Numbered from the stretch's first letter, positions 24,209-48,020 are shown. The stretch: 49,470 nt of DNA from an uncultured Erysipelotrichaceae bacterium (GCA_902787775.1 CADAHV010000002.1:1-49470), one strand, 5' to 3'. Notes: generated by a model not told the origin, from the letters alone. Numbers and translations are program-made.

Positions 24209-24240
24209 AGAAGAAGGATAAGTGTTATCATAAAAAAGGT

Positions 24241-24972
24241 ATGAAGAAGGTTGTTTGCAAGAATTGCGGTGCCCAATATACGGATGATTTAGCGAAATGT
24301 CCGTACTGCGGCACGATGCACAAAAGAGGTGCTTACCGTCAATTCCGTAAGAAGATCTCGGATATGATCGATTCGATGCTGGGCTTAAAAGAAAAGGCAC
24401 AGGCATCAGTCAGCCGGATCATCCTTTTGTCATTGCTTCGCTCCGCTTTGATCATCGCTGTGGTGATCGGCCTGGCTTTCTTTGCTTCGGGCTTTGCCGA
24501 TATCAATTACTATAACGACAAGGAATACGATCAGGAGGCTCTGGAGACGATCCTCTGGGAAGAGGAGAATCTGGAAAAACTGGATGAAGCCTATGCCAAA
24601 GAGGACTATGAAACAATCAAAAAACTCTACTACGAAAACAGCAGAGTTGTTTCTCACTGGCCGAAGTATTCGATGTTTGCTTTGAAGGCGCAATACAAAG
24701 AGATCATGGAAGAAGAACGTTTCAATGAGTATGTATTGAGCGATGTTTTATACTTCCTCTACTATCCGGAATACTTTACCGGTTACGGCAGAGTCAAGAA
24801 CATCGACACGCAGGAATATGAACTGATGTGCGAAGGCCTCTATACCAGGATGAATCAGGAAGGCTTTTCCAAGGCAAAACTGGAAGAGATCTATAAGAAA
24901 CATGCGGATTCCTATGGCTACATCCATGCTGCAGATCTTCAGGAATATATAAAGGAGGAAGGCAATGGTTAA
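24241..24972 (+). CDS. Hypothetical membrane protein: N-terminal zinc ribbon, one TM, about 150-aa helical Tyr/Glu-rich domain
   Basis: CKNCGAQ...CPYCG, then the TM ALIIAVVIGLAFFASGF. No family was recognised. Paralogous to the next two ORFs. Confidence 0.7.
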   Translation: MKKVVCKNCGAQYTDDLAKCPYCGTMHKRGAYRQFRKKISDMIDSMLGLKEKAQASVSRIILLSLLRSALIIAVVIGLAFFASGFADINYYNDKEYDQEALETILWEEENLEKLDEAYAKEDYETIKKLYYENSRVVSHWPKYSMFALKAQYKEIMEEERFNEYVLSDVLYFLYYPEYFTGYGRVKNIDTQEYELMCEGLYTRMNQEGFSKAKLEEIYKKHADSYGYIHAADLQEYIKEEGNG

Positions 24973-25687
24973 CTGTAAAAACTGCGGTGCGCCTTTGTCT
25001 TTGGAAGAGGCGGTCTGTCCGCACTGCGGTACACCGAACCCGGAAGCACAGGAACACTTAAAGAAACTGGCGCAGCTGAATTCGGCTTTTGAACAGACCC
25101 AGTACGAAGTTGTCGACGAGGTCAAGAAAAACAAGCGCGGCTATGGTGTTCTGGTGATTCTGGTCATGGTCATGCTGGCAAATCTGATACTGATACCGGT
25201 ACATGCCGCCAGCTACGATATAGCCGAAAAGCTGACTGCCGACAAGAGAGGCAAAGATGACATCCTTGCCACGCTGGATACATTGATGGAAGAGGGCGAG
25301 TACATTGAAATGTTCCTGTTCTCCGACCGTTACCGTCTGAATTACAGAGATTATGGGGAGTATAATCAGATCAACTATCTGGCTTCCGATTACAATCGGG
25401 TCGTCAACTGTGTCACCAACTACCTGTATGGAAAAGACAACTACAGCGATCCTTTGGTCCAGGCTTGCGATACTCTCATTCAGTTTAAGAACGATTATGA
25501 TTCCTATTCAAGGCGAATGGAAGATCAGCGCTTAAAGGGTTATCTGGATAAACTGAATGCGGAAATGGATGCCTATGTCAAGACGTTCCTGAAGCTGACC
25601 GATGAGGACATTGCCGGAATTGCCGATATGAGCAACTCTGAACTGCTCTTAAAAGTGAATGAGAGGCTGACCAATGAAGAAGAATAG
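24965..25687 (+). CDS. Hypothetical membrane protein, paralog with zinc ribbon, TM and helical domain
   Basis: CKNCGAP...CPHCG, then the TM GVLVILVMVMLANLILIPV. 8-nt overlap with the upstream gene. Confidence 0.7.
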   Translation: MVNCKNCGAPLSLEEAVCPHCGTPNPEAQEHLKKLAQLNSAFEQTQYEVVDEVKKNKRGYGVLVILVMVMLANLILIPVHAASYDIAEKLTADKRGKDDILATLDTLMEEGEYIEMFLFSDRYRLNYRDYGEYNQINYLASDYNRVVNCVTNYLYGKDNYSDPLVQACDTLIQFKNDYDSYSRRMEDQRLKGYLDKLNAEMDAYVKTFLKLTDEDIAGIADMSNSELLLKVNERLTNEEE

Positions 25688-34337: not shown

Positions 34338-35671
34338 GTGAATAAGGAACATCAAAGAGAAAATATTGAATTGATGAAAAAGATCCTGGTCTTTGCCTGG
34401 CCGATCATGGCGGCAAACATCTTACAGATCTCTTTCAATTTTGCCGATACCCTGGTGGTCGGCAACTTCGTCTCCGATAAGGGACTGGCAGCAGTCGGTT
34501 CGGCAGCACCGCTGATTGTCTTTTTTACCTGGGGACTCAACGGACTTTCTCTGGGCAGTGATGTTTTGATTTCCCGCATGATCGGGGCAAAAGAAAACGG
34601 AAAGATCGCCAAGGCTGTTTTTTCTTCAATCCTGGTGGCTTTATTCTTTGGCATAGGTATCGGTATTCTGGGAAATCTTTTGAGCAGTTTCTTTCTGAAG
34701 CTGCTTTCCACGCCGGAAGACATACTGAATGAGGCGTCCTTGTATACCAGGATCTATTTCCTGGCCTGTCCGGCGATCAGCCTGTATCATTTCGGCTCTT
34801 CCATTCTGCGTTCCAGTGGCAACACCAAGGATCCGACATTGTACCTTGGCCTGTCCGGTCTTTTGAATGTGGTGCTGAATCTGATCTTTGTGGCTTTTGC
34901 GCATCTGGGTATTGCCGGAGCTGCTGTTTCGACGGTGATCTCTCAATGTTTTTCTGCCTTTTTGATCCTGCGGCGCCTTTTAAGGGAAGAAGGTGTCATA
35001 GCCTTGTCTTTGGATCCCGGCCTTTTTGATTATCACCTGGCTTTGAAGATTTTGAGTTATGGTATCCCTTCGGCATTGCAGAATCAGCTCTTTTCTTTCA
35101 GCAATATCGTCATTCAGTCGGGCATCAACTCCTTTGGTTCCGCCTTCGTGGCGGCCAATACGGCTGCCAATATGTCTACGTCTTTGTCGACGCCTTTCCT
35201 TTGACATCGCTGACGTTCAATTCCCGCTACTATGGGGCAAAGGAATACGAAAAGATCAGGAAAGTGACCTGGATGACCTTCTTCATCTGCGGCATCGGTG
35301 CTTTTGCGATCGGTTCCTTCATTCTTTTGAACGGACCGTTTCTGCTTGGCTTGCTGACAAGGGAAGAGGAGATCATCTCTTTGGGCATGTACCGTCTAAG
35401 CTGCGTGACTTTCTTCCTTTTCCTGAATGGTCTTCTGGATGTGATCGTGAATTCAATCAGGGGGATGGGTCTCATTTATCTTCCGACGCTGATTACTCTG
35501 TTTGGCGTCTGCGGTTTTCGTCTGGTTTATCTGTATACCTATTTTGCCCTTCACCATACGCCGGTGGCTTTATACAGCTGTTTCCCGTTGAGCTGGATGC
35601 TGGCTTTGCTGATACAGCTGCCGATCTGGTTTATCCGCTACAGGCGGATCCGTCAGGAAAGGGGAAATTGA
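34338..35671 (+). pseudogene. MATE-family efflux transporter split by a frameshift near 35165-35175
   Basis: ORFs 34338-35204 (288 aa) and 35201-35671 (156 aa) together make one MATE-sized polytopic protein of about 440 aa. The MATE-like sequence YVYVFVDAFPLTSLTFNSRYYGAKEYEKI continues in the other frame upstream of 35201. Confidence 0.75.
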
Positions 35672-35709
35672 GGGATCTCATCCATCTTTTCAAAAAAAGT
35701 AAAAAATGT

Positions 35710-35738
35710 TTGGAAAGATGAAAGGTTTAGTATATAAT
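35710..35738 (+). promoter_or_regulatory. Candidate promoter of tRNA-Val (TTGGAA, 17-nt spacer, TATAAT)
   Basis: TTGGAA at 35710-35715 and TATAAT at 35733-35738, 13 nt before the tRNA 5' end. Confidence 0.45.
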
Positions 35739-35947: not shown

Positions 35948-37555
35948 ATGAAATGTCCCAATTGCAACGGAACCTTGTATTTCGATATTCCGTCACAGAA
36001 ACTGAAATGCCGCAACTGTGAAAGTGTTTTTAAACCGGAAGAGTACGAGGGAGACAACAGTGCCGAAGAAGACGTGATTGAGGGCGGAAAGATGTATATC
36101 TGTCAGAACTGCGGTGCCGAACTGATCAGCGCAAATGATGAAGCAGTCTCCTATTGCAGCTACTGCGGCAGTGAACAGATCCTGGAAGGGGAACTGACCG
36201 GCGTCAAAAAGCCGAAATACATTATGCCGTTTCGCATCTCTAAAGAAGAATGCAAGAAGATCTACGAGAAGGAAGTCAAAGGCAAGAACTATGTCCCGAA
36301 AGAGTTCAAGGATCCGCAGTTTATCGAACGGTTCCGTCCTTTCTATATCCCTTACTGGATGTATAATATCCGCTTCAGAGAGGATCCTTTCAAGATAAGC
36401 GGGCACAGACATTACACCAAGGGCAATTATGACTACGATGAAGACTATGATGTCACGGCCCAGCTGGATGAAACGACCTACGGGGTTCCTTTCGATGCCT
36501 CAAGAAATTTTGATGATACGATTGCCGAACACATCGCACCTTTCGCAAAGAGCAATATCAAGAACTATCATCCGGGCTATCTGGCCGGCATGTATGCCGA
36601 TTCGCCAAACGTGGATGCCAGACTCTATGAAGAGGAGGTTCTGGAGAAGGCCAGCAAGCTGGCAGTCGATTCTTTGGAAAACAAGCTCGGCGGCATGAGC
36701 CTTGATTTGCCGAAAAAGCCGAAAAAACTGCAGGAATTCCTGCGGGCCGAATATGGCAATGAAGAGGCGATCTATCTGCCGGTATGGTTTCTGACCTGGA
36801 GGAAGAATGACCGGGTCGCTTATGCGGTCGTCAATGGTCAAAGCGGCAAGATCCACATTGACCTGCCGGCTGATCTCAATGTCTTTTCCATCTACACGGC
36901 GATCGGGGCTGCCCTCTTGTTTGTCCTTTTGAGTCTGTTTGTTTCGGTCACATCGCGTTTTGTCATCTGGTTTTCCGCTTTGCTGGTATACCTGGTGGGA
37001 AGGCGCTATTACAGCGAACTTAAGCAGATCCGCAACCGGGAAAATCATGTCTTTGATAAGGGCTATCTGTTAAGTGAAGAAAAAGAACTGCCGATGTCGG
37101 AAAAGAAACGGAATCGTCTGAGAAAAAGAGTAATGAATACCTCCTTTGACTTTTCTGCTGTCATGATGGGGCTGTGCTTTGTCCTGGCTTTCATTGTCTT
37201 TATGTTTGCCGGCAGTTTTTATGATATTGCCGTATCTCAGATGGGAGCACTTGCTTTGACGTTTATCATTCTGATCCTTCAAAGCATCCGCTTTGTACGC
37301 CAGATCAATGTAGCCAGATATCTGAAAAACAAGCGTTCCATTCTGGTGTGTATTCTGGGAATGGGCTCGGTTGTCTATGCCTTTATGGTCGCTTATTTAC
37401 AGCCGGTCGAAGACTGGTGGTACTACCTCGGTTCTTTGATCTGTCTGGTTGCGGCCAGCGCCATGAGCATCGATCTGATCCTTCGCTATAACGAGACTTC
37501 CACAAGGCCTTTGCCTTCTTTCTACAGCCGTAAGGGAGGTGATGACCGTGCGTAA
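35948..37555 (+). CDS. Double zinc-ribbon membrane protein (YdjG-like core) with an extra polytopic C-terminal region
   Basis: KCPNCNGTLYF...KCRNCES and YICQNCGAE...YCSYCGS ribbons. Clearly homologous to ORF 42918-43961 over the first 320 aa or so. It then has about 5 additional TM segments. Confidence 0.8.
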   Translation: MKCPNCNGTLYFDIPSQKLKCRNCESVFKPEEYEGDNSAEEDVIEGGKMYICQNCGAELISANDEAVSYCSYCGSEQILEGELTGVKKPKYIMPFRISKEECKKIYEKEVKGKNYVPKEFKDPQFIERFRPFYIPYWMYNIRFREDPFKISGHRHYTKGNYDYDEDYDVTAQLDETTYGVPFDASRNFDDTIAEHIAPFAKSNIKNYHPGYLAGMYADSPNVDARLYEEEVLEKASKLAVDSLENKLGGMSLDLPKKPKKLQEFLRAEYGNEEAIYLPVWFLTWRKNDRVAYAVVNGQSGKIHIDLPADLNVFSIYTAIGAALLFVLLSLFVSVTSRFVIWFSALLVYLVGRRYYSELKQIRNRENHVFDKGYLLSEEKELPMSEKKRNRLRKRVMNTSFDFSAVMMGLCFVLAFIVFMFAGSFYDIAVSQMGALALTFIILILQSIRFVRQINVARYLKNKRSILVCILGMGSVVYAFMVAYLQPVEDWWYYLGSLICLVAASAMSIDLILRYNETSTRPLPSFYSRKGGDDRA

Positions 37556-38312
37556 ACTGATGAAAGTACTGATTCTCATCCTTCTGATGCTGCTGGCCAG
37601 TGAAACAGCTTTGGAAAATGTTTCTTGCGAAGGGGAATACAAAGTCATCATCGATGATGAACAGGATCTTCTGACCGAAAGTGAAGAAAAGAACCTGAAA
37701 GAAAAGATGTCGCAGGTGGCAGAATACGGCAACGTGGCTTTTGTCACGGTTTACCAGTATGAAGATACCGGTTCCTATGCCGAGAAGGTCTACCGTTCCT
37801 ATTTCGGTAGGGAAAGCGGCATGCTGTTTATGATCGACATGGGCAGAAGAAACATCTGGATCTTCTGCGATGGGGCGATCTACAGAGTGATCGACAAGGC
37901 TTATGCCTATACGATTACCGACAATATCTATCGTTATGCCAAAGACGGTGATTATTACAATTGTGCTTTAAGTGCTTTTGATCAGGCGTTGATCTTACTG
38001 AAAGGCGGCGCGATCGCGCAGCCGATGAAATACATCTCCAATGCGCTGATCGCCTGTGTTTTGGCATTATTGATCAATTTTATATTTTTGACTTATCAGA
38101 GAAACAACGACGAGACAATTATTGCTCGTTCTGTCCCGGCTTTGACGACAACGGTCGGGGCCTATATTCTGTCTAAAAGAGTGACCTCCCGCAACAAAAC
38201 GCGGCACGTTCAGTACAGCTCTTCTTCCGGCGGTTCATCCGGTGGCGGCTTTTCCGGTGGCGGCGGAGGAGGCGGCGGTTCTTCCGGCGGCGGCGGCGGT
38301 CACAGTTTCTAA
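37539..38312 (+). CDS. TPM-domain protein (signal peptide, TPM domain, TM, Gly-rich tail)
   Basis: The signal peptide is followed by IIDDEQDLLTESEEKNLKEKM...FVTV (TPM pattern). A TM ALIACVLALLINFIFL follows, and the tail ends SSSGGSSGGGFSGGGGGGGGSSGGGGGHSF. The start is ambiguous (GTG 37539, ATG 37542, GTG 37548 or ATG 37560) and overlaps or abuts the upstream stop at 37555. Confidence 0.8.
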   Translation: MMTVRKLMKVLILILLMLLASETALENVSCEGEYKVIIDDEQDLLTESEEKNLKEKMSQVAEYGNVAFVTVYQYEDTGSYAEKVYRSYFGRESGMLFMIDMGRRNIWIFCDGAIYRVIDKAYAYTITDNIYRYAKDGDYYNCALSAFDQALILLKGGAIAQPMKYISNALIACVLALLINFIFLTYQRNNDETIIARSVPALTTTVGAYILSKRVTSRNKTRHVQYSSSSGGSSGGGFSGGGGGGGGSSGGGGGHSF

Positions 38313-38342: not shown

Positions 38343-38717
38343 ATGGAAATGAGATTCTATCGCTGTAAAAAATGCGGCCAGATGGTAGCCATGGTTAAGA
38401 AAAAAGGCTGCCCGATCATGTGCTGCGGTGAACCTATGGAAGAGATCATAGCCAATACTTCAGACGGTGCTGCGGAAAAGCACGTTCCGGTCTATGAAGT
38501 GAGAGACGGCAAGCTGTTTGTCTGTGTCGGTGAAGTCGCCCATCCGATGAGCGAAGAACACTACATCGAATGGATCGCCGTTCAGACCAAGAGAGGAAAC
38601 CAGCGCATCACCTTACATCCGGGAGATGAACCAAAGGCAGTCTTTGCCTTGCTGGAGGGCGATGAAGTGGAAGCGGTCTATGCGTATTGCAACCTGCATT
38701 CTCTCTTCAAAGCTTAA
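38343..38717 (+). CDS. dfx: Desulfoferrodoxin (2Fe superoxide reductase)
   Basis: 124 aa. N-terminal desulforedoxin-like CKKCG...CPIMCCG. Centre II ligand segments are EKHVP, HPMSEEHYIEWI and YCNLHSL. Confidence 0.9.
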   Translation: MEMRFYRCKKCGQMVAMVKKKGCPIMCCGEPMEEIIANTSDGAAEKHVPVYEVRDGKLFVCVGEVAHPMSEEHYIEWIAVQTKRGNQRITLHPGDEPKAVFALLEGDEVEAVYAYCNLHSLFKA

Positions 38718-38789: not shown

Positions 38790-39929
38790 TTGAATATGGC
38801 TTTGATATACAAACTCTTTAAACTGGATCCGAACAGCAGAGAAGGCGTCGTATCGGCAACTTCGATCTTAAGCGTGATCGTCAATCTCTTTGTTGCTTTG
38901 ATGAAAGTCGTCGTCGGCTTGCTGGCATCTTCGATCGCCATCGTGTCCGAAGGTGTGAACAACGCAACCGATGCCTTGTCTTCCATATTGACTCTGGTCG
39001 GTACGAAACTGGCCGCAAAAGCTCCTGACGCAAAACATCCGTTTGGTTACGGCCGTATTGAGTATCTGACCAACATGGTCATCGCTTCCTTTATTCTGGT
39101 CGGCGGTGCCGAAATGATGTTAAATTCGATCAAGCTGATCTTTAACCCGGAGAAGCTCAATGTTTCTTATGTTTCTCTGGCCGTGGTTGCCATCTCGGCG
39201 ATCATCAAATACTTCCTCGGTGTCTACACGATCAAGACCGGAAAAAGAGTCGGTTCGCAGTCTCTGGAAGCTGTAGGCGTCGATTGCCGCAACGATTCGT
39301 TTGTTTCCGTTGTCACGATCATCTCTTCCCTGGTCTATCTGCTTGGCAATATTTCCATTGATGCCTATGCCGGTCTGTTTACTTCCTATCTGATCGTAAA
39401 AGCCGGATATGACATCATGAAGGATACGGTGGCCGAACTGCTTGGCCAGCCGGCAGATGAAGAACTGGTAAAAGAACTTTATAAGGAGATCCGAGGCACA
39501 GAAGGAATCATCAACGCTGTCGATATGGTGCTTCACAATTACGGGCCGGATGCCTATACCGGTTCCTGCAACGTCGAACTGGATCACAAGTCTTCTGTTG
39601 GTGATGTCTATGAATTCTTAAGGCCTTTGCAGATAAGGCTCTTAGAAAAGTATCATGTCGCGATGGTCTTTGGTATCTATGCCGTCGATAATGATTCCGC
39701 GGATTCCAAAAAGCTCAGGAAGGAGATCGCGGACTTTGTTCGAAACAATGAACACATCAAGAGCTATCATGCGATCTATTCCGATAAGCGGATCAATACG
39801 ATCTATTGCGATCTGGTTATCGATTACGAGGTGGATCGTGAAGCGATCACCAGACAGTTTGAAGCCTATCTCAAATCGATCTATCCGGATAAAAATATCC
39901 AGGTCAACATCGATACCGAATTCGTATAA
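38790..39929 (+). CDS. Cation diffusion facilitator (CDF) family transporter, second copy
   Basis: 379 aa. GVNNATDALSS, PDAKHPFGYGRIEY and CRNDSF motifs plus a C-terminal cytoplasmic domain. The start is TTG 38790 or ATG 38796, after TAGGAG. Confidence 0.88.
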   Translation: MNMALIYKLFKLDPNSREGVVSATSILSVIVNLFVALMKVVVGLLASSIAIVSEGVNNATDALSSILTLVGTKLAAKAPDAKHPFGYGRIEYLTNMVIASFILVGGAEMMLNSIKLIFNPEKLNVSYVSLAVVAISAIIKYFLGVYTIKTGKRVGSQSLEAVGVDCRNDSFVSVVTIISSLVYLLGNISIDAYAGLFTSYLIVKAGYDIMKDTVAELLGQPADEELVKELYKEIRGTEGIINAVDMVLHNYGPDAYTGSCNVELDHKSSVGDVYEFLRPLQIRLLEKYHVAMVFGIYAVDNDSADSKKLRKEIADFVRNNEHIKSYHAIYSDKRINTIYCDLVIDYEVDREAITRQFEAYLKSIYPDKNIQVNIDTEFV

Positions 39930-39939
39930 GCGTTATATG

Positions 39940-39962
39940 CCCCTGCAGACAGGGGTTTTTTA
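39940..39962 (+). terminator. Intrinsic terminator of the second CDF gene
   Basis: CCCCTG (39940-39945) pairs with CAGGGG (39950-39955), followed by T6. Confidence 0.8.
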
Positions 39963-40044
39963 TTTCATTTTCTCTTCATTTTAAGTTCAGTTTGAATTCA
40001 CATTGGAAATTTAAGATTAAACCATAAAAGAAAGGAGGGAGGAC

Positions 40045-40728
40045 ATGGAGACCTTTCAAAGATTTGAGAAAAAGTATCTGCTGAATGATGAGCAGTATGC
40101 TTCACTGATGGAGCAGATGAAGGAGCATATCGTTCCGGACAAGTTCTATCAGACGATGATCCGTTCTCTGTATTATGACACGGATGATCATGAGCTCGTC
40201 AGACGTTCGATCGAAAAACCGGAGTATAAGGAAAAGCTTAGGGCGAGATCCTATGGCGATTCGAAAGGAAACGATGAAGTCTTCGTTGAACTGAAGAAAA
40301 AATATGACGGCATCGTCTATAAGAGACGTACGCAAGTCTGCTGCAAAGATGTCCTGAATGACATCGCGACCTGTCATTTCAAAGATTCACAGGTCGGAAA
40401 AGAGATTCTCTATGCCTTGAACTATTACGGCAAACTGAGCCCTTCCATCTATATCGGATGCAAGAGAACCTCCTACGTAGGGAAAAAGGAAGAAGATCTC
40501 AGGATCACGTTTGATAAAGAGATCTCTTATCGGACGAGAAACCTTTCCCTTCAGAAAGATGATGATGACGACAGACCATTGACTGACAAGACGGTCATGG
40601 AATTGAAGATAAAGGATGCGATGCCGCTTTGGCTGGCTGACATCCTCGATGAAAACAAGGTTTATCCCCAGTCGTATTCGAAAGTGGGAAATGCCTTTCT
40701 GAAACAGTTGCAAGGAGAAATGTTATGA
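40045..40728 (+). CDS. VTC-domain protein (triphosphate tunnel metalloenzyme fold, polyphosphate-polymerase-like)
   Basis: 227 aa and soluble. The N-terminal strand RFEKKYLL, the basic segments YKEKLRARSY and VELKKKYDGIVYKRR, and the C-terminal VMELKIK match the VTC/CYTH pattern as I recall it. Confidence 0.75.
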   Translation: METFQRFEKKYLLNDEQYASLMEQMKEHIVPDKFYQTMIRSLYYDTDDHELVRRSIEKPEYKEKLRARSYGDSKGNDEVFVELKKKYDGIVYKRRTQVCCKDVLNDIATCHFKDSQVGKEILYALNYYGKLSPSIYIGCKRTSYVGKKEEDLRITFDKEISYRTRNLSLQKDDDDDRPLTDKTVMELKIKDAMPLWLADILDENKVYPQSYSKVGNAFLKQLQGEML

Positions 40729-41399
40729 CAAGTTTATTCGGAACAATCTTTACCGGATCATTGACCTTAGGCCAGTTCATCCTGGCAATCACCGCCAGTA
40801 TGGTGATGGGGCTGATCCTTTCCATCGTATTTATGTATAAAAACACCTATACCAAGTCATTTATCTGCGCATTGGTATTGCTTCCGGCAGTGGAGAGCGT
40901 TGTCATCATGCTGGTCAACGACAATCTCGGTGTCGGTTTATCGGTAGCCGGTTCTTTCGCTCTGATCCGTTTCCGTTCGGTCAAGGGCAATGCCAGAGAA
41001 CTGGTGGCAGTCTTTATCGCCATGACGATCGGTATCATCTGCGGTACCGGATATGTCGGACTGGCCGGCGTATTCACTCTGCTTTTATCAGCGGTGATGC
41101 TGGCTTTGACGGTGAGCGGCTTTGGTCAGGTATCGGAAAACAGAAAGTATCTGAAGATCACGATCCCGGAATCGCTCAACTATGACGAAGTATTTGATGA
41201 AGTACTTCAGAAATATACAAGATCCTATGAACTGGAAAGCGTCAAGACCTTGACTCTGGGTTCCTTGTTCAGAGTGGAATACAATGTTGACATGAAAGAT
41301 CATTCCCTGATAAAGAAAATGATCGATGAGCTCAGGACCAGAAACGGCAACCTCGAGATCAGCTGCGGCAGACTGACTGCCGAGAGGGAGGAACTGTAA
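40725..41399 (+). CDS. DUF4956-like membrane protein (4-5 TM plus a C-terminal soluble domain)
   Basis: 224 aa. Hydrophobic segments run through about residue 130, followed by a soluble domain of about 90 aa. ATGA overlap with the VTC gene. This family usually partners bacterial VTC-domain genes. Confidence 0.65.
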   Translation: MTSLFGTIFTGSLTLGQFILAITASMVMGLILSIVFMYKNTYTKSFICALVLLPAVESVVIMLVNDNLGVGLSVAGSFALIRFRSVKGNARELVAVFIAMTIGIICGTGYVGLAGVFTLLLSAVMLALTVSGFGQVSENRKYLKITIPESLNYDEVFDEVLQKYTRSYELESVKTLTLGSLFRVEYNVDMKDHSLIKKMIDELRTRNGNLEISCGRLTAEREEL

Positions 41400-42850
41400 T
41401 GAAAAAGATGCTGTGCGTGATGATGGCCTTACTGATGCTGTGCGGATGCAATACGGTCATCGGCAATGAAGATACAAGCAGTACAACGGCTGTGGCCGAC
41501 AATACGAACTATACGGAAGGCGGAGCTGACGCAAGCTATGAGATCAGCGGCTCAACCTATATTTCATTAGGAAATGAAGATGTAAAGATCAATAAGGCCG
41601 GTACATATATCCTGGAGGGAACACTGAACGGAAGTGTCATCGTTGAAGTTTCCGACAGTGAAGATGTACAGCTGGTATTGAATAACGTCACGATCAATTC
41701 CGCTGATTTTGCCGGTATCTATATCGTGGAAGGTGATGAGATCACGATCACTCTGGCAGAAGGCAGCGTCAACACGATCAGTGATTCTTCAGCATACACC
41801 CAGATCGACAGCAATGAAGTCGACGCCTTAATCTATTCCAAGGCAGATCTGTTTATCAACGGCGAAGGCAGCCTGGTGCTCAATTCCGCATACAATCACG
41901 GCATTGTTTCCAAGGATGATCTTGTCGTGACTTCAGGAAACTTTACGATCGATGTTGCCGGAGCCGGCATGAAAGGCAAGGACTGCCTGATCATCTCGGA
42001 TGGCACTTATGTGATCCGTTCAGGCAAGGACGGCTTGAAATCCGATAACGATGAGGATGCAGAAAGAGGCTACATTACGATTTCCGGCGGCAGCTTTGAG
42101 ATCACATCGGCTGGTGATGGCATCTACGGTTTGAACGCAGTGAATATTGAAGGCGGCACATTCAAGATTACGACAAGCACGTCTTCTTCCGATTCGGCCA
42201 AGGCCATCAAATCTGATCTTTCCGTGACGATCTCAGGCGGCGAATTCACAATTGATTCCTGTGATGACGGCATTCATTCCGATCAGGATGTTCTGATAAA
42301 AGGCGGAAACTTCAATATTGTCAGCGATGATGATGCGATCCATGGTGACAGCAAGGTTCAGATCGATGCAGGCGATTTCACCATCAATGCGCATGAAGGC
42401 ATTGAAGCTACCTATGTACTGCTTAACGGCGGCAACATCGATATCACGGCAACAGATGACGGCATCAATGCCGGTCAGAAGGTGAACACCTATACGGCAA
42501 CCATCGAGATCAACGATGGTACCATCAAGATCGATATGGGTCAGGGTGATACCGATGCGGTGGATTCCAACGGTTACATCTATATCAACGGCGGTACGCT
42601 GGAGATCAATGCACAGTCACCGTTTGATTACGATATGGGTGCAGAACTCAACGGCGGTACAGTCATTGTCAATGGAAGCGAAGTCAATTCCATTTCCAAT
42701 CAGATGATGGGCGGTTTCGGCGGCATGGGCATGCATCAGATGCCGGGAGGAATGAACCAAGAGAATAATGAATACAATGAGGGACCGGGCTACCAGGAAG
42801 GGCAGTCCGGTTCCTATGGTCCGTTTGGCGGCAAGCCGGGAAGACACTGA
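41399..42850 (+). CDS. Beta-helix repeat lipoprotein (Cthe_2159-like carbohydrate-binding family) with a Gly/Met-rich tail
   Basis: Lipobox LMLCGC. About 11 tandem units of about 22 aa (for example DDGIHSDQDVLIKGGNFNIVS and DDAIHGDSKVQIDAGDFTINA). The tail reads MMGGFGGMGMHQMPGGM.... TAATG overlap with the upstream gene. Confidence 0.7.
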   Translation: MKKMLCVMMALLMLCGCNTVIGNEDTSSTTAVADNTNYTEGGADASYEISGSTYISLGNEDVKINKAGTYILEGTLNGSVIVEVSDSEDVQLVLNNVTINSADFAGIYIVEGDEITITLAEGSVNTISDSSAYTQIDSNEVDALIYSKADLFINGEGSLVLNSAYNHGIVSKDDLVVTSGNFTIDVAGAGMKGKDCLIISDGTYVIRSGKDGLKSDNDEDAERGYITISGGSFEITSAGDGIYGLNAVNIEGGTFKITTSTSSSDSAKAIKSDLSVTISGGEFTIDSCDDGIHSDQDVLIKGGNFNIVSDDDAIHGDSKVQIDAGDFTINAHEGIEATYVLLNGGNIDITATDDGINAGQKVNTYTATIEINDGTIKIDMGQGDTDAVDSNGYIYINGGTLEINAQSPFDYDMGAELNGGTVIVNGSEVNSISNQMMGGFGGMGMHQMPGGMNQENNEYNEGPGYQEGQSGSYGPFGGKPGRH

Positions 42851-42917
42851 GTCTTCCTTTTTCATATATAAAATAGATGAAGATAAAAAGTTGTATAATG
42901 AAATAAAGGTTGAAAAA

Positions 42918-43961
42918 ATGAGCGAATTGAAAGATTTTAAATGTCCCAACTGCGGAGGCCGTTTAGAGTTCGACGCCCAGACACAGAAACTGAAATGTCC
43001 ATATTGCGACGGAACGTTTGATCCGGAAGTTTTTAATGAGGGAGATAACTATACTGTCAGCAGTGAAAAATGGGAAGATGACGACATCGTTGTCTATACC
43101 TGCAAGTCCTGCGGCGGCACGATCATGGCGGATCGGGATACGGCAGCCAGCAGCTGTCCGTATTGCGGCAATCCGGTCGTAATGACCAGCAACGTCTCCG
43201 GCATATATAAACCAAAGAAGGTCATTCCTTTCCTGCTGGATAAGAAACAGGCGAAGGAACGCTATAAGAATTTCCTTAAAGGCAAAGTTCTTTTGCCGGA
43301 TGCCTTCAAAAATGAGGCTGTCATCGACGAGATGAAAGGCATCTATGTTCCTTACTGGCTCTTTGGCGGCAAAGCCAATGCCAGAATGTGGTTTGATGCG
43401 ACACGAGTCAGACACTGGAACGAAGGGGAATACATGTGTACGGAGACCAGTTACTACAAGGTCTTCCGTTCCGGTTCGGTCCGTTTCGCCGATGTTCCGG
43501 TCGATGCATCGGGCAAGATTGACGATCTTCTCACCGAATCGATTGAACCGTTCGATATCAAAGAGGCGAAGGTATTCTCCGAAAATTATCTGGCCGGCTA
43601 TTATGCCGACAAGTACAGCGTTTCTGCCGAAGAATCCAGACAGAAGGCAAATTCCAGAATCGCCAATTCGACGACATCTTTATTTGCTTCAACGACCAGG
43701 ATGTATGATTCCTGTGCTCCGTCTTCTTCCTCGATTTCGATCAGTGACGGCCGGCAGGATTATGTCATGTATCCGGTGTGGCTGCTCAATATCAAATACG
43801 GAAGCAAGCTTTACACTTTTGCGATGAACGGGCAGACCGGCAAGTTCGTCGGTGAACTGCCAATCGATCGGGGGAAACTGGGGCGCATTGCCATATCGGT
43901 CTTCCTTGGCGTTACGGCTGCCATGACGGCATTACAGTATCTGCTGTATTTGGTGAGGTGA
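42918..43961 (+). CDS. Double zinc-ribbon, C-terminally TM-anchored protein (YdjG-like)
   Basis: KCPNCGGRLEF...KCPYCDG and YTCKSCGG...CPYCGN ribbons with a single C-terminal TM. Start set at MSELKDF (42918); the upstream ORF extension overlaps the lipoprotein gene. Confidence 0.8.
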   Translation: MSELKDFKCPNCGGRLEFDAQTQKLKCPYCDGTFDPEVFNEGDNYTVSSEKWEDDDIVVYTCKSCGGTIMADRDTAASSCPYCGNPVVMTSNVSGIYKPKKVIPFLLDKKQAKERYKNFLKGKVLLPDAFKNEAVIDEMKGIYVPYWLFGGKANARMWFDATRVRHWNEGEYMCTETSYYKVFRSGSVRFADVPVDASGKIDDLLTESIEPFDIKEAKVFSENYLAGYYADKYSVSAEESRQKANSRIANSTTSLFASTTRMYDSCAPSSSSISISDGRQDYVMYPVWLLNIKYGSKLYTFAMNGQTGKFVGELPIDRGKLGRIAISVFLGVTAAMTALQYLLYLVR

Positions 43962-43965
43962 TCCT

Positions 43966-45204
43966 ATGAAGAAAATATTCAGTGTGATCCTCCTTGCCCT
44001 GACCTTACTGTGGGCAAACAACATCTATGCGGCAGAAGACCATGTGATTCTGGAGAACTATCAGGATTTCATGAGCAGGGACCAGTACGATCAGCTCAAT
44101 GAAGATCTTGCACAGATCCAGGAAAATTACGACGTCAATATCTATTTCATCTACGATACTTCGATCGATGATTCCGATAACGGCGTAAAGGCATATGCCG
44201 ATGAATTCCTTGCTTCGCATTCGTTTAATTCCAACAATGTTGCGATCGTCATGTCTTCTTCCTATTATTACGTGGCGGCCAACGGTGACGGGGCAAACGA
44301 AGTCATCAAAAGGGATGAGGCGGTCTTTGACAGGTTCTATTCGCGGGCTTCCATGCTTTCAAGCAGCGATCCGAACGCCTTCTTTGAAGGAATTACGAAT
44401 GCCTACCAGTACGTGCTGGAACTGATCAATGCCAAGACTTACCAGTCGGACGCACCGGTCTCAAAAGAAAAAGCACTGGTCAATGACTTCTCCAACATCA
44501 TGAGCGATGATGAAGAAGAAAGGCTCAACCGAAAACTGCAGAAGATCAAAGACAAATACGGCTTCGATGCAGTTGTCGTTACAACGGATTCGTTCAACGG
44601 CATGTCGGCGAGAGACTATGCGGATGATTTCTATGATTACAGCCAGTATTCGAAGGACGGCATCCTCTTTGTCCTGAACATGACGGAGAGAACCTGGTAT
44701 GTTTCAACAAAGGGAAAGGGAATCGACTATTTTACCGATTACGGTATTGATGCGATTTTTGAAGAAATGGCTGAAGATCTTTCCGACGGCAAGTATTATG
44801 ATGCTTTCGTGATCTATGCCGACAAAGTTGAAAAGTATGTCGTCAACGGCATGCAGGGCAATGTCGTCGATGTAGGCAATGAAGAAAAGTCATTCGGTGT
44901 ATTCAATGTCATGATCTCGGCCATCGTCGGCGCGATATCATCGCTCATCACCTCTTTGTCCTTGAGAGGAAGGATGAAGAACGTAAGCAGGCAGCATTTT
45001 GCGCGAAACTATATCGTTTCTGATACCTTTGACATCAACGGCGCTTCGGATATGCTGGTAAACAGGCATGTTTCCAGAACCCGCAGACCGCGCCGTGATG
45101 ACAGTATAGGCAGAGGTTCGGGACCGAGCCATATGGGCGGCGGTTCCAAAGTACATACGTCTTCAAGTGGTTCTTCCCATGGCGGCCATGGCGGACACTT
45201 TTAG
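43966..45204 (+). CDS. Tandem TPM-domain protein (signal peptide, two TPM domains, TM, Gly/His-rich tail; YdjH-like)
   Basis: Signal peptide LLWANNIYAAED. There are two TPM-like units, LENYQDFMSRDQYDQLNEDL... and VNDFSNIMSDDEEERLNRKLQKI...VVVTT. The TM is VMISAIVGAISSLITSL and the tail ends GSSHGGHGGHF. Confidence 0.8.
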   Translation: MKKIFSVILLALTLLWANNIYAAEDHVILENYQDFMSRDQYDQLNEDLAQIQENYDVNIYFIYDTSIDDSDNGVKAYADEFLASHSFNSNNVAIVMSSSYYYVAANGDGANEVIKRDEAVFDRFYSRASMLSSSDPNAFFEGITNAYQYVLELINAKTYQSDAPVSKEKALVNDFSNIMSDDEEERLNRKLQKIKDKYGFDAVVVTTDSFNGMSARDYADDFYDYSQYSKDGILFVLNMTERTWYVSTKGKGIDYFTDYGIDAIFEEMAEDLSDGKYYDAFVIYADKVEKYVVNGMQGNVVDVGNEEKSFGVFNVMISAIVGAISSLITSLSLRGRMKNVSRQHFARNYIVSDTFDINGASDMLVNRHVSRTRRPRRDDSIGRGSGPSHMGGGSKVHTSSSGSSHGGHGGHF

Positions 45205-45241: not shown

Positions 45242-46312
45242 ATGGGTTTAATTAAAGCATTGACCGGGTCTGTAATCGGTACGGTACTTGACACATGGAA
45301 GGACTATTTTGTTTGTGATTCCCTTGATAACGATACCTTGATGGTAAAAGGCACAAAGAGGGGCTTCGGCGGTTCAGGCGATGTCATCACAAACGGTTCC
45401 GGCATCATCGTCAATGAAGGACAGTGTGCTCTGATCATTGAAGAAGGCAATATTCTGGAAGTTGCCAACGAGCCGGGAAGCTATACATTTGATTCTTCAC
45501 TTTCACCAAGTATTTTTGACGGTGGTCTTGAAGGCCTCAAGAACTCTTTCAAGGATGCGGTAGAAAGATTCACATTCGGCGGTGAAGTCAACAAGTCACA
45601 GCGCGTTTACTATGTCAACACCAAGGAGATCATGGAAAACCGTTTCGGTACGGCTACACCGATCCCGTTCAGAGTTATTTTCGATAAGACGACCGGTTCG
45701 GAAGTCGAAATCTCTGTCAAATGCAATGGTGAATTCACCTTCAGAATCGTCAATCCGGTTGTCTTCTATCAGAAGGTCGCCGGCAATAAAGCCGACAGAT
45801 TTGAAAAGGACGAACTGATTTCCATTATGAAGTCCGAAATGATGGATGCCTTGAATCCGGCATTCGGCAAGCTTTCCGATCTGAACATCCGTTATTCTGA
45901 ACTTCCTTCTCATACAACGGAGATCAAGGATGCCTTAAGAGAAGCCTTAAGGACTCGCTGGGAAGAAAACAGAGGTATCGCTCTTGATTCGCTGACGATC
46001 AATTCCGTCACTATTCCGGAAGCAGATGCTGAAAAGATCAAGAACATTCAGTTCTCTTTCATCAACAGAGACAAGGATACAGCCAATGCAACGATCGTTT
46101 CCGCAACTGCCGATGCGATCAGAGATGCTGCAAACAACGCCAACGGTGCAGCGACCGGTTTCATGAATGTCAATATGGCAACCAATACCGGCGCACAGTT
46201 CTTACAGCAGAACAATACAGCACAGGGTGGCGGCGGTTTCTGTCCGTTCTGCGGCCAACCGGTACCATCAGGTGCTAAATTCTGCCCAAGCTGCGGTAAA
46301 GCATTGCAATAG
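45242..46312 (+). CDS. SPFH/band-7-like protein with a C-terminal zinc ribbon (YdjI-like)
   Basis: 356 aa. The N-terminus is MGLIKALTGSVIGTVLDTWKDYF, followed by a central SPFH-like region. The C-terminus FCPFCGQPVPSGAKFCPSCG is a CxxC...CxxC ribbon. Confidence 0.75.
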   Translation: MGLIKALTGSVIGTVLDTWKDYFVCDSLDNDTLMVKGTKRGFGGSGDVITNGSGIIVNEGQCALIIEEGNILEVANEPGSYTFDSSLSPSIFDGGLEGLKNSFKDAVERFTFGGEVNKSQRVYYVNTKEIMENRFGTATPIPFRVIFDKTTGSEVEISVKCNGEFTFRIVNPVVFYQKVAGNKADRFEKDELISIMKSEMMDALNPAFGKLSDLNIRYSELPSHTTEIKDALREALRTRWEENRGIALDSLTINSVTIPEADAEKIKNIQFSFINRDKDTANATIVSATADAIRDAANNANGAATGFMNVNMATNTGAQFLQQNNTAQGGGGFCPFCGQPVPSGAKFCPSCGKALQ

Positions 46313-46394: not shown

Positions 46395-48020
46395 GTGCAT
46401 ATGAAGTTCAGTGATATTTTGTCGGTATTGAGCGGACTGGCAATTTTCTTATACGGCATGGAAGTCATGGGCAATGGCTTCAAGCATATGGCCGGCGGAA
46501 AACTGCAGGATGTTCTCGAGAAGCTCACGAAAAAGCCTCTCGTCGCAATGCTGGCAGGAATGCTGGTAACAGCACTTGTACAATCATCTGGGGCAACGAC
46601 AAGCATGCTTGTCAGTTTTGTCAATGCCGGAATCATGCGGGTTGAGCAGACGGTCTATGTCATTTTAGGCAGCAATGTCGGTACGACGATCACCGGCCAT
46701 CTGATGGCTTTGGATGTCGGACTGGTCTCGCCGTTTTTGGCTTTCATCGGTGTATGTCTCATCATGTTTGTCAAGAACGACAAGCTCAACGCCATAGGTG
46801 AAATCATGATGGGCCTGGGCTTTGTTTTCATCGGCATGGATACAATGTCCGGCGGTCTGGCTCCTTTGGGAAGTTCACCGTTCTTCTTAAAAATTCTGAC
46901 TTCGATGCGCAATCCGGTTTTCGGTATCCTGGTCGGTTTTGTTTTAACAACCATCGTACAGTCTTCTTCCGCTTCTCTGGGTATCATTCAGTCCCTGGCA
47001 AAGAGCGGCCTAGTCCAGATCAAAGATGTCATGTTCTTCAATCTGGGCCAGAATATCGGTTCCTGTACGACAGCGATGCTGGCATCCCTGAGTTTCAACC
47101 GCGATGCCAAGCGCGTTTCGATCATAAATCTGACTTTCAATATAGTGAATGCTGTTCTGTTCACCATCCTTTACTCCCTGTTCCCGTTTGACAGACTTTA
47201 TCAGACTCTGGCACCGGGCAGTGTCGTTGAACAGATTGCCTTCATGCATACATTTACCAATATAGTGACTTCTTTGGTCTGCTTCCCGATTGCCGGTGTT
47301 CTGGCAAAGGTTGCCTATCTGTTTATTCCGGATCAGGGAAGCGAAAAACATCTGCAGCCGGAAGTGGAAGCTTCGCCGAAGATGGAAAACAATACAGCTT
47401 TCAACATCTACGGTATCAATATCGAGATCAACAATATGCTTAGCATTGTCGAATCATCCATTCGGGAAGGCTTAAATGCCATTCTGGAACATTTCTCCCG
47501 AATCGATCTGATCAGGGCAAATGAAGCACAGGTCAACCAGATCAACAAAGGTATTTCACGCAATCTGCTGCTTCTGATGGCATCCAATACCAATATGGAA
47601 GAATCACGTCAGGCAGCTTCACTTTTCTCAATGAATGTCGACCTGGAAAGAATGAGCGATCATGCCGTCAATATTGCCGAAGCAGGCGATGACCTGACAA
47701 GAAACGATCTGTCTTTCTCTCTGCTTGCATACGATGAACTCGAACATCTCTCCGGCATCATTTTTGATTCTTTCGATGCACTCAACGAGATCATCGGCAA
47801 CGACAATAAAGATGCGTTTGCACGTATCAAGGAAAACGAAAATATGATCGATGAGCTTTGCATGACCTATCGGACAATCGAGATCGATCGTATGCGAAAC
47901 AATGCGGCTGAGGCCGAATCCGGCGTCATCTATTCCGAACTGCTGATCGACATCGAAAGAATCGGCGACCATATCATGAATGTTGCGGAGAATCTTTGCA
48001 ATAGTTATGAAGGCCAATAA
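46395..48020 (+). CDS. Na/Pi cotransporter family protein with a C-terminal PhoU-like domain
   Basis: 541 aa. Duplicated QSSGATTSM / QSSSASLGI half-transporter motifs. The C-terminal helical repeats end ...ERIGDHIMNVAE (PhoU-like). The start is GTG 46395 or ATG 46401. Confidence 0.88.
   Translation: MHMKFSDILSVLSGLAIFLYGMEVMGNGFKHMAGGKLQDVLEKLTKKPLVAMLAGMLVTALVQSSGATTSMLVSFVNAGIMRVEQTVYVILGSNVGTTITGHLMALDVGLVSPFLAFIGVCLIMFVKNDKLNAIGEIMMGLGFVFIGMDTMSGGLAPLGSSPFFLKILTSMRNPVFGILVGFVLTTIVQSSSASLGIIQSLAKSGLVQIKDVMFFNLGQNIGSCTTAMLASLSFNRDAKRVSIINLTFNIVNAVLFTILYSLFPFDRLYQTLAPGSVVEQIAFMHTFTNIVTSLVCFPIAGVLAKVAYLFIPDQGSEKHLQPEVEASPKMENNTAFNIYGINIEINNMLSIVESSIREGLNAILEHFSRIDLIRANEAQVNQINKGISRNLLLLMASNTNMEESRQAASLFSMNVDLERMSDHAVNIAEAGDDLTRNDLSFSLLAYDELEHLSGIIFDSFDALNEIIGNDNKDAFARIKENENMIDELCMTYRTIEIDRMRNNAAEAESGVIYSELLIDIERIGDHIMNVAENLCNSYEGQ

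Follow-up and report, generated by a model that had tools for sequence, protein, structure and literature searches.

We analyzed a 49,470-nucleotide stretch of DNA from an uncultured Erysipelotrichaceae bacterium (GCA_902787775.1 CADAHV010000002.1:1-49470; hereafter the window), in which three consecutive open reading frames on the plus strand, between positions 40045 and 42850, code for a protein of the VTC family, to which the yeast polyphosphate (polyP) synthase subunit Vtc4 belongs, a DUF4956 membrane protein and a Cthe_2159 lipoprotein. VTC and DUF4956 are near-obligate neighbors whichever of the two is used as the starting point of a search, and together they constitute a widespread two-gene core module of bacteria. 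The features of the locus are as follows:

39939..39956, + strand: terminator-like hairpin and T-run (GCCCCTGCAGACAGGGGT then TTTTTATTTC) that ends the upstream cation-efflux gene; 5' boundary of the operon
39964..40007, + strand: four direct repeats over the −35 position, candidate operator of the OmpR/PhoB family (PHO-box-like)
40012..40017, + strand: candidate −10 hexamer TAAGAT, picked out by eye, without a canonical −35 element at 17-bp spacing
40031..40042, + strand: ribosome-binding site of gene 1, AAAGGAGGGAGG, read from the sequence
40045..40728, + strand: gene 1, soluble VTC-type triphosphate tunnel protein of 227 aa, candidate polyP polymerase (Pfam, structural model, Foldseek, hhalign)
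40725..41399, + strand: gene 2, DUF4956 membrane protein of 224 aa (Pfam, structural model, hydropathy, conservation)
41399..42850, + strand: gene 3, Cthe_2159 acidic right-handed β-helix lipoprotein of 483 aa (Pfam, PDB 4PEU, lipobox)
42838..42858, + strand: terminator-like hairpin across the stop codon of gene 3 (GGGAAGACACTGAGTCTTCCT then TTTTCATATA); 3' boundary of the operon

An earlier reading of the locus by a model working from the sequence alone (hereafter the sequence-only reading) had described three co-directional genes joined by overlapping stop and start codons, and these coordinates and overlaps are exact: the start of gene 2 overlaps the stop of gene 1 in ATGA at 40725-40728, and that of gene 3 overlaps the stop of gene 2 in TAATG at 41397-41401. 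Each start is preceded by a Shine–Dalgarno-like motif, namely AAAGGAGGGAGG for gene 1, AAGGAG for gene 2 and GGGAGG for gene 3. The terminator-like hairpins on both sides of the three genes argue for a discrete transcription unit, and the recurrence of the same gene order in dozens of species places the arrangement far beyond chance. We are nearly certain that the three genes form a self-contained operon with the family assignments given above. None of them is matched by an NCBIfam or PADLOC model, which leaves them with neither a curated equivalog nor a link to a defense system. Contigs that encode a protein identical to that of gene 1, in the same synteny, are found in 129 blocks of the assembly collection, among them the metagenome-assembled genome (MAG) GCA_017389135.1; the nearest named relatives of the protein are from Erysipelotrichaceae MAGs, many of them of ruminant gut origin.

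Phyletic spread of the VTC–DUF4956 pair

A forward scan of one genome per GTDB species with a VTC alignment matched at least 560 stretches, the best 80 of which were analyzed. These loci are from records of Erysipelotrichaceae, Lachnospiraceae, Oscillospiraceae, Ruminococcus, Collinsella, Sphaerochaetaceae and Bacteroidales. DUF4956 lies directly 3' of VTC in 78 of the 80, the remaining two ending at a contig edge, and the modal spacing of the pair is an 8-nt overlap. The reverse scan, in which a diverse DUF4956 alignment was run against metagenome contigs, furnished 65 loci with room upstream and 15 truncated ones. VTC stands directly 5' of DUF4956 in 63 of the former and across a 320-nt gap in one more, and a partial VTC gene is present in all 15 of the latter. 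The lone true exception (L085:3915-5779) combines DUF4956 with Cthe_2159 and has neither VTC nor a remnant of it upstream (tblastn E > 1). Cthe_2159 itself is found in 58 of the 80 forward-scan loci (50 downstream of the pair, 8 upstream) and in 50 of the 65 reverse-scan loci. The co-occurrence of the three families, which had been put forward as a check on the proposed system, thus extends well beyond this genome.

DUF4956 is a large family, with 3,372 representatives at the level of 50%-identity clusters. CotH, which the literature led us to expect, is not a recurrent neighbor in the 80 loci nearest this one. We saw no functional VTC–DUF4956 fusion: the search yielded a truncated chimera alone (P0425, 337 aa), in which a VTC fragment that lacks β-strand 1 and the last strands is in frame with a DUF4956 region devoid of its first helices, and which looks like a deletion product rather than a functional fusion.

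Gene products and promoter region

Gene 1 matches the Pfam VTC profile (PF09359) with 127.3 bits (cutoff 23; E 9e-37) over profile positions 2-229 of 235, and this is its sole Pfam domain. The motifs from which the sequence-only reading had recognized a triphosphate-tunnel protein (RFEKKYLL, YKEKLRARSY, VELKKKYDGIVYKRR and VMELKIK) are all in its translation, and the assignment is borne out by the Pfam match, by a confident model and by a Vtc4-like catalytic set. The AlphaFold model, made with an alignment of 39 homologs, has a mean pLDDT of 93.3 and a pTM of 0.88. A Foldseek comparison, which had likewise been suggested, returned VTC tunnel domains as all of the 13 best PDB matches (TM-score on the query, TMq, 0.65-0.75), with Vtc4 at TMq 0.75 and E ~1e-13; YgiF and the CYTH cyclases and phosphatases rank below them (TMq ≤0.55). 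The predicted fold is of the eight-stranded β-tunnel type and nearer to Vtc4 than to other triphosphate tunnel metalloenzymes (TTMs).

The sequence relationship to Vtc4 emerges at the level of the family profile. A direct phmmer search of the PDB with gene 1 gave marginal matches to Vtc2 and Vtc4 alone (E 0.1-0.7), and it took the family profile to align the bacterial proteins with Vtc4 192-480 (hhalign probability 95.4%). A profile built from the C-terminal region alone found no PDB match because of a long insertion in yeast Vtc4 at this point, and a homolog search seeded with a Vtc4 fragment recovered exon-sized fragments only, short of E426 and K458. The reference sequence of Vtc4 192-480 was checked piecewise against PDB chains (residues 337-480 are identical to 8i6v_E) and that of AtTTM3 was confirmed against PDB 3v85_A.

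Structure and mutagenesis have defined the functional set of yeast VTC as K200, R264, R266, K281, R361, K458, S457, Y359 and the Mn2+ ligand E426; K458 sets the catalytic Vtc4 apart from the inactive Vtc2 and Vtc3, which have Ile or Leu in its place (bioRxiv 10.1101/2023.01.27.525886). In a cryo-EM study of yeast VTC, the R264A/R266A/E426N mutant was inactive. Eight of these nine experimentally defined residues are kept in gene 1, the K458 equivalent included: K10 (K200 of Vtc4), R66 (R264), R68 (R266), K84 (K281), R141 (R361), E186 (E426), S212 (S457) and K213 (K458). None of the eight varies among 81 sequences of 39-68% identity, taken from 80 species-level loci. At the position of Y359, gene 1 has Cys139, with Tyr in 65 of the 81 family members, Cys in 10 and Thr in 4.

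The tunnel-center residues have misled before. Martinez et al. found AtTTM3 to be a tripolyphosphatase despite Vtc4-like residues at the tunnel center, where a polymerase had been expected (PMC4641920). They showed that the hydrolytic TTMs are marked by an acidic patch (E2, E4, E90 and E171 of AtTTM3) that constitutes a second, catalytic metal site, and that the same positions are basic in Vtc4, steering the nascent chain outward (PMC4641920). In gene 1 the register of the patch gives R6, E8 and K188, with the E90 equivalent mapped uncertainly, on a strand with the invariant K93 and R95; by this alignment the patch is Vtc4-like apart from one retained glutamate, E8. Further, the bacterial VTC family profile did not match the hydrolase AtTTM3 (hhalign probability 0.5%). 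Judging from these sequence features, gene 1 probably codes for an active polyP polymerase.

Gene 2 is matched by Pfam DUF4956 (PF16316; 52.4 bits, cutoff 30.6, E 7e-14). Hydropathy and the model indicate four or five hydrophobic helices followed by a soluble C-terminal domain of ~90 aa, in agreement with its initial description as a polytopic membrane protein with such a domain. The AlphaFold model is of low confidence (pLDDT 64.7 overall, 55-69 in the membrane part) because the homologs supplied were all at least 71% identical; it places helices at 15-37, 44-63, 68-85, 90-107 and 111-131, four of which are clearly backed by hydropathy. The soluble domain (β-α-β-β-α-β at ~140-216, pLDDT 72-85) shows a weak Foldseek likeness to ACT, PII/GlnK, CutA1 and S6 (E ≥ 7e-3; TM-score on the target, TMt, 0.45-0.66). 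Invariant over diverse loci are R82-F-R84-S, which follows a Gly-rich helix, and, in the soluble domain, P148-E149, Y153 and R204-x-R206-N-G-N-L. Conservation is higher in DUF4956 than in its enzyme partner: in the same clade, identities run to 71-89% among gene 2 homologs and to 52-71% among those of gene 1.

A profile of the gene 2 family found neither a relative nor a VTC chain in the PDB, and there was no VTC membrane chain in the Foldseek top 50 for gene 2; Foldseek gave no significant match to the membrane part, an uninformative outcome for a low-confidence model. Nor do genes 1-3 have Pfam matches of the Vtc1 type (DUF202). Pfam MgtC (PF02308) gave co-linear sub-threshold matches in five of ten diverse DUF4956 proteins (E 0.0019 to 8.5; cutoff 31.4 bits) and no match to the window's own gene 2 protein at E ≤ 10. 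The modeled layout of DUF4956, a helical bundle plus an ACT-like domain, looks MgtC-like. The orientation in the membrane can be gauged from two variants, P0450 and P0474, in which a signal peptide at the N-terminus, an acidic low-complexity stretch and a CxxC...CxxC zinc ribbon precede the membrane domain; taken with the basic loops at 38-44 and 82-91, they point to an N-out, C-in topology, which suggests that the ACT-like domain and the RFRS motif are cytoplasmic, on the side of the VTC enzyme. The zinc ribbon of these variants echoes the zinc-ribbon membrane proteins encoded beside this operon.

Gene 3 belongs to the Cthe_2159 family (PF14262; 317.6 bits, above the curated cutoff, E 7e-95) and is homologous to its solved structure (PDB 4PEU; E 7e-33). 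Its lipobox MLCGC, with Cys17, lies in MKKMLCVMMALLMLCGC, which fits the PROSITE PS51257-type pattern, and is followed by 10 clear β-helix coils with periods of 20-29 aa and a C-terminal tail rich in Gly, Met, Gln and Asn. Thus, the lipoprotein, the tandem coils and the Gly/Met/Gln tail of the sequence-only reading stand, and the strict 19-residue repeat that it proposed is an idealized consensus with a single match. The protein is highly acidic, with an isoelectric point (pI) of 4.05 and 72 Asp+Glu against 19 Lys+Arg in the mature form. This character is shared by all 59 Cthe_2159 partners in related loci (pI 4.05-4.88); a hydrophobic segment at the N-terminus is present in 55 of them and a lipobox-like motif in 47. 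By these signals, the gene 3 product is extracytoplasmic. On identical contigs, gene 3 has independently been called from Met8 (41420; 476 aa); the start at 41399 gives an MKK n-region, as befits a lipoprotein signal peptide, with GGGAGG 7 nt upstream, and is the better of the two in both signal peptide and ribosome-binding-site spacing. The family is described in bioRxiv 401869 as a PL9-like β-helix that binds cellulose and polygalacturonic acid, a property reported for its founding member (Close et al. 2014, cited there). That preprint also reports Cthe_2159 and CotH domains, the alternative third partners of VTC–DUF4956, as unique acquisitions of anaerobic gut fungi.

Between the upstream terminator and the ribosome-binding site of gene 1, and thus 5' of the coordinates given by the sequence-only reading, TTCA occurs four times at an exact spacing of 11 bp (39964, 39975, 39986 and 39997), in the units TTCATTTTCTC, TTCATTTTAAG, TTCAGTTTGAA and TTCACATTGGA. 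The array ends 4 nt 5' of the −10-like TAAGAT, a candidate that a consensus promoter scan did not call. Of 20,000 shuffled versions of the intergenic region, one gave a four-unit phased array, and the array is the sole non-homopolymer case in the window, where the exact three-unit TTCA pattern is found nowhere else; no second TTCA-phased operator was found at the window's Na/Pi transporter gene or elsewhere in it. In related Erysipelotrichaceae loci with diverged flanks, four phased units are kept 5' of VTC in L001, L002, L003, L006, L011 and L082, and three in L007. The TTCA core is invariant and the 3' half AT-rich and unconserved; a G precedes the core in one of the four window units and in three of the four L001 units, and the last unit is GTTCACA in the related loci with a conserved array. 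The hexamers at the position equivalent to TAAGAT are TATCAT, TATGAT and TAAGAT in L001, L002 and L082.

The PHO box of Streptomyces PhoP is built of 11-nt units, G(G/T)TCAYYYR(G/C)G, with 2-4 of them in tandem near the −35 element (PMC2275107), and 7-bp repeats with 4-bp spacers are given for Mycobacterium tuberculosis PhoP in PMC4832192. The array at 39964-40007 is a putative activator site of the OmpR/PhoB family, possibly a PHO box, and the odds that the operon is under PhoP-type control are, from the sequence, about even. Such an operator would be a link between the operon and phosphate status that owes nothing to the VTC homology, and its conserved phased repeats offer a direct way of finding out when the operon is expressed. 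An OmpR-type response regulator and/or a histidine kinase lies within 2.5 kb of VTC–DUF4956 in 27 of the 80 loci, both of them in 22. L012, L076, L079 and L080 are among these regulator-bearing loci, and the HisKA kinase is sometimes a hybrid; the window has neither regulator nor kinase.

The operon is flanked by two paralogous gene pairs (35948-38312 and 42918-45204), each specifying a zinc-ribbon (CxxC) protein with C-terminal membrane helices and then a TPM-domain protein that ends in a Gly/Ser/His-rich tail; the pair arrangement is kept in close relatives. An SPFH plus zinc-ribbon protein (45242-46312) follows the downstream TPM pair, and a Na+/Pi cotransporter fused to two PhoU domains (46395-48020), a second phosphate-related gene, lies 3.5 kb 3' of the operon. 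Paralogous cation diffusion facilitator (CDF) efflux genes are found at 7516-8682 and 38790-39929, the second directly 5' of the VTC operon and itself preceded by a desulfoferrodoxin gene (38343-38717). A MatE efflux gene (34338-35721) is split: 34338-35204 matches the first MatE repeat only and 35059-35721 has no match, which may reflect a frameshift, a pseudogene or an assembly error. Further away, 23084-25687 codes for a phosphodiesterase/PglZ-like protein and then two tandem zinc-ribbon proteins of ~240 aa without other recognizable domains.

Proposed function and its alternatives

We favor a reading of the operon as a phosphate-regulated, membrane-coupled polyP polymerase with export, to which as a whole we assign a probability of roughly 0.45. 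Under this proposal, gene 1, docked on DUF4956 at the cytoplasmic side of the membrane, would make inorganic polyP from ATP, with E186 holding Mn2+ or Mg2+ and K213 assisting γ-phosphate transfer. An oligomer of DUF4956, with the invariant R82 and R84 at the cytoplasmic membrane boundary, would conduct the growing chain across the membrane; its ACT-like domain would be the docking or ligand-sensing part, and DUF4956 would functionally replace both the SPX and the channel parts of the yeast complex. Once outside, the polyP would be retained or used by the acidic Cthe_2159 lipoprotein through bridging divalent cations, in the way that pectate is bound in the β-helix fold class. A response regulator of the OmpR/PhoB type would turn on transcription, with phosphate status as the probable signal.

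The components of this proposal are not equally secure. The case for export draws on the consistently extracytoplasmic nature of the partners, which are Cthe_2159 in this locus and secreted CotH, DUF4832 and Pel in others, on the invariant boundary arginines and on the analogy with yeast. Export to the cell surface is plausible, and the coupling of synthesis to export through DUF4956 itself is a tentative suggestion, to which we lean less than to the proposal that gene 1 is a polymerase. A bolder version is speculative and, taken whole, unlikely: VTC and DUF4956 would form a minimal synthase-translocase and a third bacterial class of polyP enzyme, switched on by a Pho-type regulator and extruding polyP to the surface, either as a cation-bridged matrix polyanion held by Cthe_2159 or, in cotH-type loci, as an ATP-independent phosphoryl donor for secreted CotH kinases, with DUF4956 as a new kind of polyanion conduit gated by an ACT-like domain.

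Several points weigh against the favored reading. Polymerase activity is predicted from homology for every bacterial member of the family, and the AtTTM3 precedent cautions, by analogy, that conserved residues alone are not proof of it. The window's clade has Cys where Vtc4 has Y359, and the invariant E8, a partial remnant of the ExExK metal motif at the position of T198 in Vtc4, is unexplained. The sequence-only reading had cast DUF4956 as a translocase, for which we obtained no direct support: by sequence and fold comparison it has no detectable likeness to the channel helices of Vtc1 and Vtc4, its membrane part is poorly modeled, and the MgtC-like layout is, by analogy, one known for regulation rather than transport. 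A protein of four or five helices forms a pore only as an oligomer. The idea of gene 3 as a polyP-binding protein needs correction, a polyanion of pI 4.05 being unable to bind polyP by plain electrostatics; bridging cations would be needed. About a quarter of the loci are without Cthe_2159, and there the pair is found among unrelated housekeeping genes. A response regulator gene is absent from the window, and the consensus used for the PHO-box comparison is actinomycete. Finally, in Streptococcus intermedius, deletions of the homologs, one gene each, had no clear effect on Pel or aggregation, and the authors suggest that polyP 'may remain in the cytoplasm' (10.1101/2024.04.20.589940).

The most serious contender takes up that last suggestion: a membrane-anchored synthase whose polyP is kept in the cytoplasm, with DUF4956 as an MgtC-like anchor or allosteric regulator and the lipoprotein merely co-regulated. 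Its ACT-like domain would sense a metabolite (Pi, a nucleotide or an amino acid) and gate the enzyme as SPX does in yeast. The likeness of the C-terminal domain to the ACT, PII and CutA regulatory folds, the sub-threshold MgtC matches in five of ten members, the CDD placement of the S. intermedius homolog in MgtC (10.1101/2024.04.20.589940), the dissimilarity of DUF4956 to the yeast channel, the view of the S. intermedius authors and the quarter of loci in which the pair stands alone among housekeeping genes all fit this alternative. It does, however, leave unexplained the nearly always extracytoplasmic third partner, the two invariant boundary arginines and the fact that the membrane part is more conserved than the enzyme, and its ACT fold evidence is weak (E ≥ 7e-3) and from a low-confidence model. 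PolyP in bacteria is normally cytoplasmic, which also speaks for it. On balance we regard retention in the cytoplasm, including the SPX-like gating, as possible but rather unlikely.

A different objection concerns the chemistry: gene 1 could be a tunnel metalloenzyme of another activity, such as a tri- or polyphosphatase, an NTPase or the producer of a short phosphate-rich signal, with DUF4956 as its sensor or effector. TTMs with near-identical tunnel centers have very different activities, as AtTTM3 exemplifies (PMC4641920); moreover, activity in the bacterial members is predicted from sequence, and the invariant E8 restores a glutamate of ExExK that Vtc4 lacks. Against this, three of the four acidic-patch positions are non-acidic (R6, K188 and probably K93/R95), the family profile fits Vtc4 and not AtTTM3, the structural match to Vtc4 surpasses those to YgiF and CYTH, and the lysine equivalent to K458 is invariant, which together make a non-polymerase improbable. 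Least likely by far is that the genes are mere neighbors brought together by local synteny of the clade rather than a functional unit. The wider surroundings (the TPM, zinc-ribbon, CDF, SPFH and Na/Pi genes) are indeed conserved among close relatives only, but the VTC–DUF4956 pair persists across many families in unrelated contexts and in both search directions, with Cthe_2159 adjacent in about 75% of cases; for genes 1 and 2 this explanation is effectively refuted.

The significance of the favored reading follows from its spread. A VTC-type enzyme with a Vtc4-like catalytic set is present in at least hundreds of bacterial species, many of them gut or rumen Bacillota. If active, it would represent an evolutionarily independent bacterial route to polyP, a third synthase beside PPK1 and PPK2, and a simpler model of the yeast synthase-translocase, with two small proteins in place of a five-subunit complex; the partner genes would then hint at the destination of the polyP, be it the cell surface, the biofilm matrix (Pel) or secreted kinases. 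Through its near-obligate pairing with VTC, the large DUF4956 family also gains a specific role to test.

Relation to known systems

The gene module itself is already in the literature and is not a first sighting. The NELoc-2 locus of Clostridium perfringens has, twice, VTC and then a membrane protein annotated as 'tubulin/FtsZ', followed by CotH (PMC2879425). For Gram-positive pel operons, Whitfield et al. give an accessory group made up of cotH, a 'poly-phosphate polymerase', DUF4956 and DUF4832 (bioRxiv 768473). The S. intermedius preprint modeled the VTC-like protein, remarked on 'the required catalytic residues', and did not locate the trio outside pel operons (10.1101/2024.04.20.589940). 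NCBI names gene 1 homologs 'polyphosphate polymerase domain-containing protein'. Even so, the surmise that no bacterial VTC operon had been characterized biochemically agrees with our finding of neither a polyP measurement nor a biochemical characterization of any bacterial VTC member or operon in the searched literature, where no paper naming both 'DUF4956' and 'VTC' was found. A 2025 review treats bacterial polyP synthesis as PPK-type and VTC as a eukaryotic enzyme (PMC12526157).

In S. intermedius, the Pel accessory module (SIR_1594-1592) codes for a CotH-like kinase, a VTC-like 'poly-phosphate polymerase' and a 4TM/ACT protein. Compared with this module and NELoc-2, the operon has the same order of VTC and DUF4956 and the same adjoining of surface or matrix genes, and the published descriptions of those loci are likewise bioinformatic. 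It differs in its third gene, which is Cthe_2159 rather than CotH or DUF4832, in the absence of a pel locus and in its PHO-box-like operator. A Cthe_2159 locus without pel contradicts the impression, given by the preprint, of a pel-only module.

With the eukaryotic VTC complex (yeast Vtc4/Vtc3 or Vtc2/Vtc1), gene 1 shares the Pfam VTC tunnel fold, the catalytic Lys, Arg, Glu and Ser residues including K458, basic residues at the positions of R196 and K428, and the pairing of a soluble catalytic domain with a membrane component. In contrast to the yeast proteins, it has neither an SPX domain nor DUF202-type helices, is ~60 residues shorter and lacks the yeast insertions; T198 is replaced by Glu in the bacterial proteins and Y359 by Cys in the window's clade. 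The operon has no Vtc1-like subunit, its membrane partner being a separate, unrelated DUF4956 protein, and the proposed destination of the polyP is the cell exterior rather than the vacuole.

MgtC/SapB proteins seem to resemble gene 2 in their layout of a membrane bundle and a C-terminal ACT-like domain, are linked to its relatives by sub-threshold matches and share with it the theme of phosphate and ATP homeostasis. In Salmonella, MgtC targets the ATP synthase and PhoR and is a regulator, not a transporter (10.1101/2024.04.20.589940). DUF4956, however, is a separate Pfam family and, unlike MgtC, is obligately paired with a VTC enzyme. To the PHO boxes of PhoP/PhoB-type regulators, the operator is alike in its four tandem 11-nt direct repeats, in part its GTTCA-type core, and the overlap with −35, and differs in that its units are AT-rich and its cognate regulator is not encoded in the window. 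The PPK1 and PPK2 enzymes would have the presumed product in common, polyP from a nucleoside triphosphate, but show no kinship in sequence or fold and are soluble or peripheral, without a dedicated membrane partner. The absence of PPK1 and PPK2 domains that had been stated for the window holds for genes 1-3 and for every window ORF of at least 140 aa, a 49-kb sample that says nothing about the whole genome.

Relative to these earlier descriptions, the new elements are the bidirectional co-occurrence statistics, the acidic-patch test, the Cthe_2159 partner outside pel, the PHO-box-like operator and the apparently MgtC-like layout of DUF4956.

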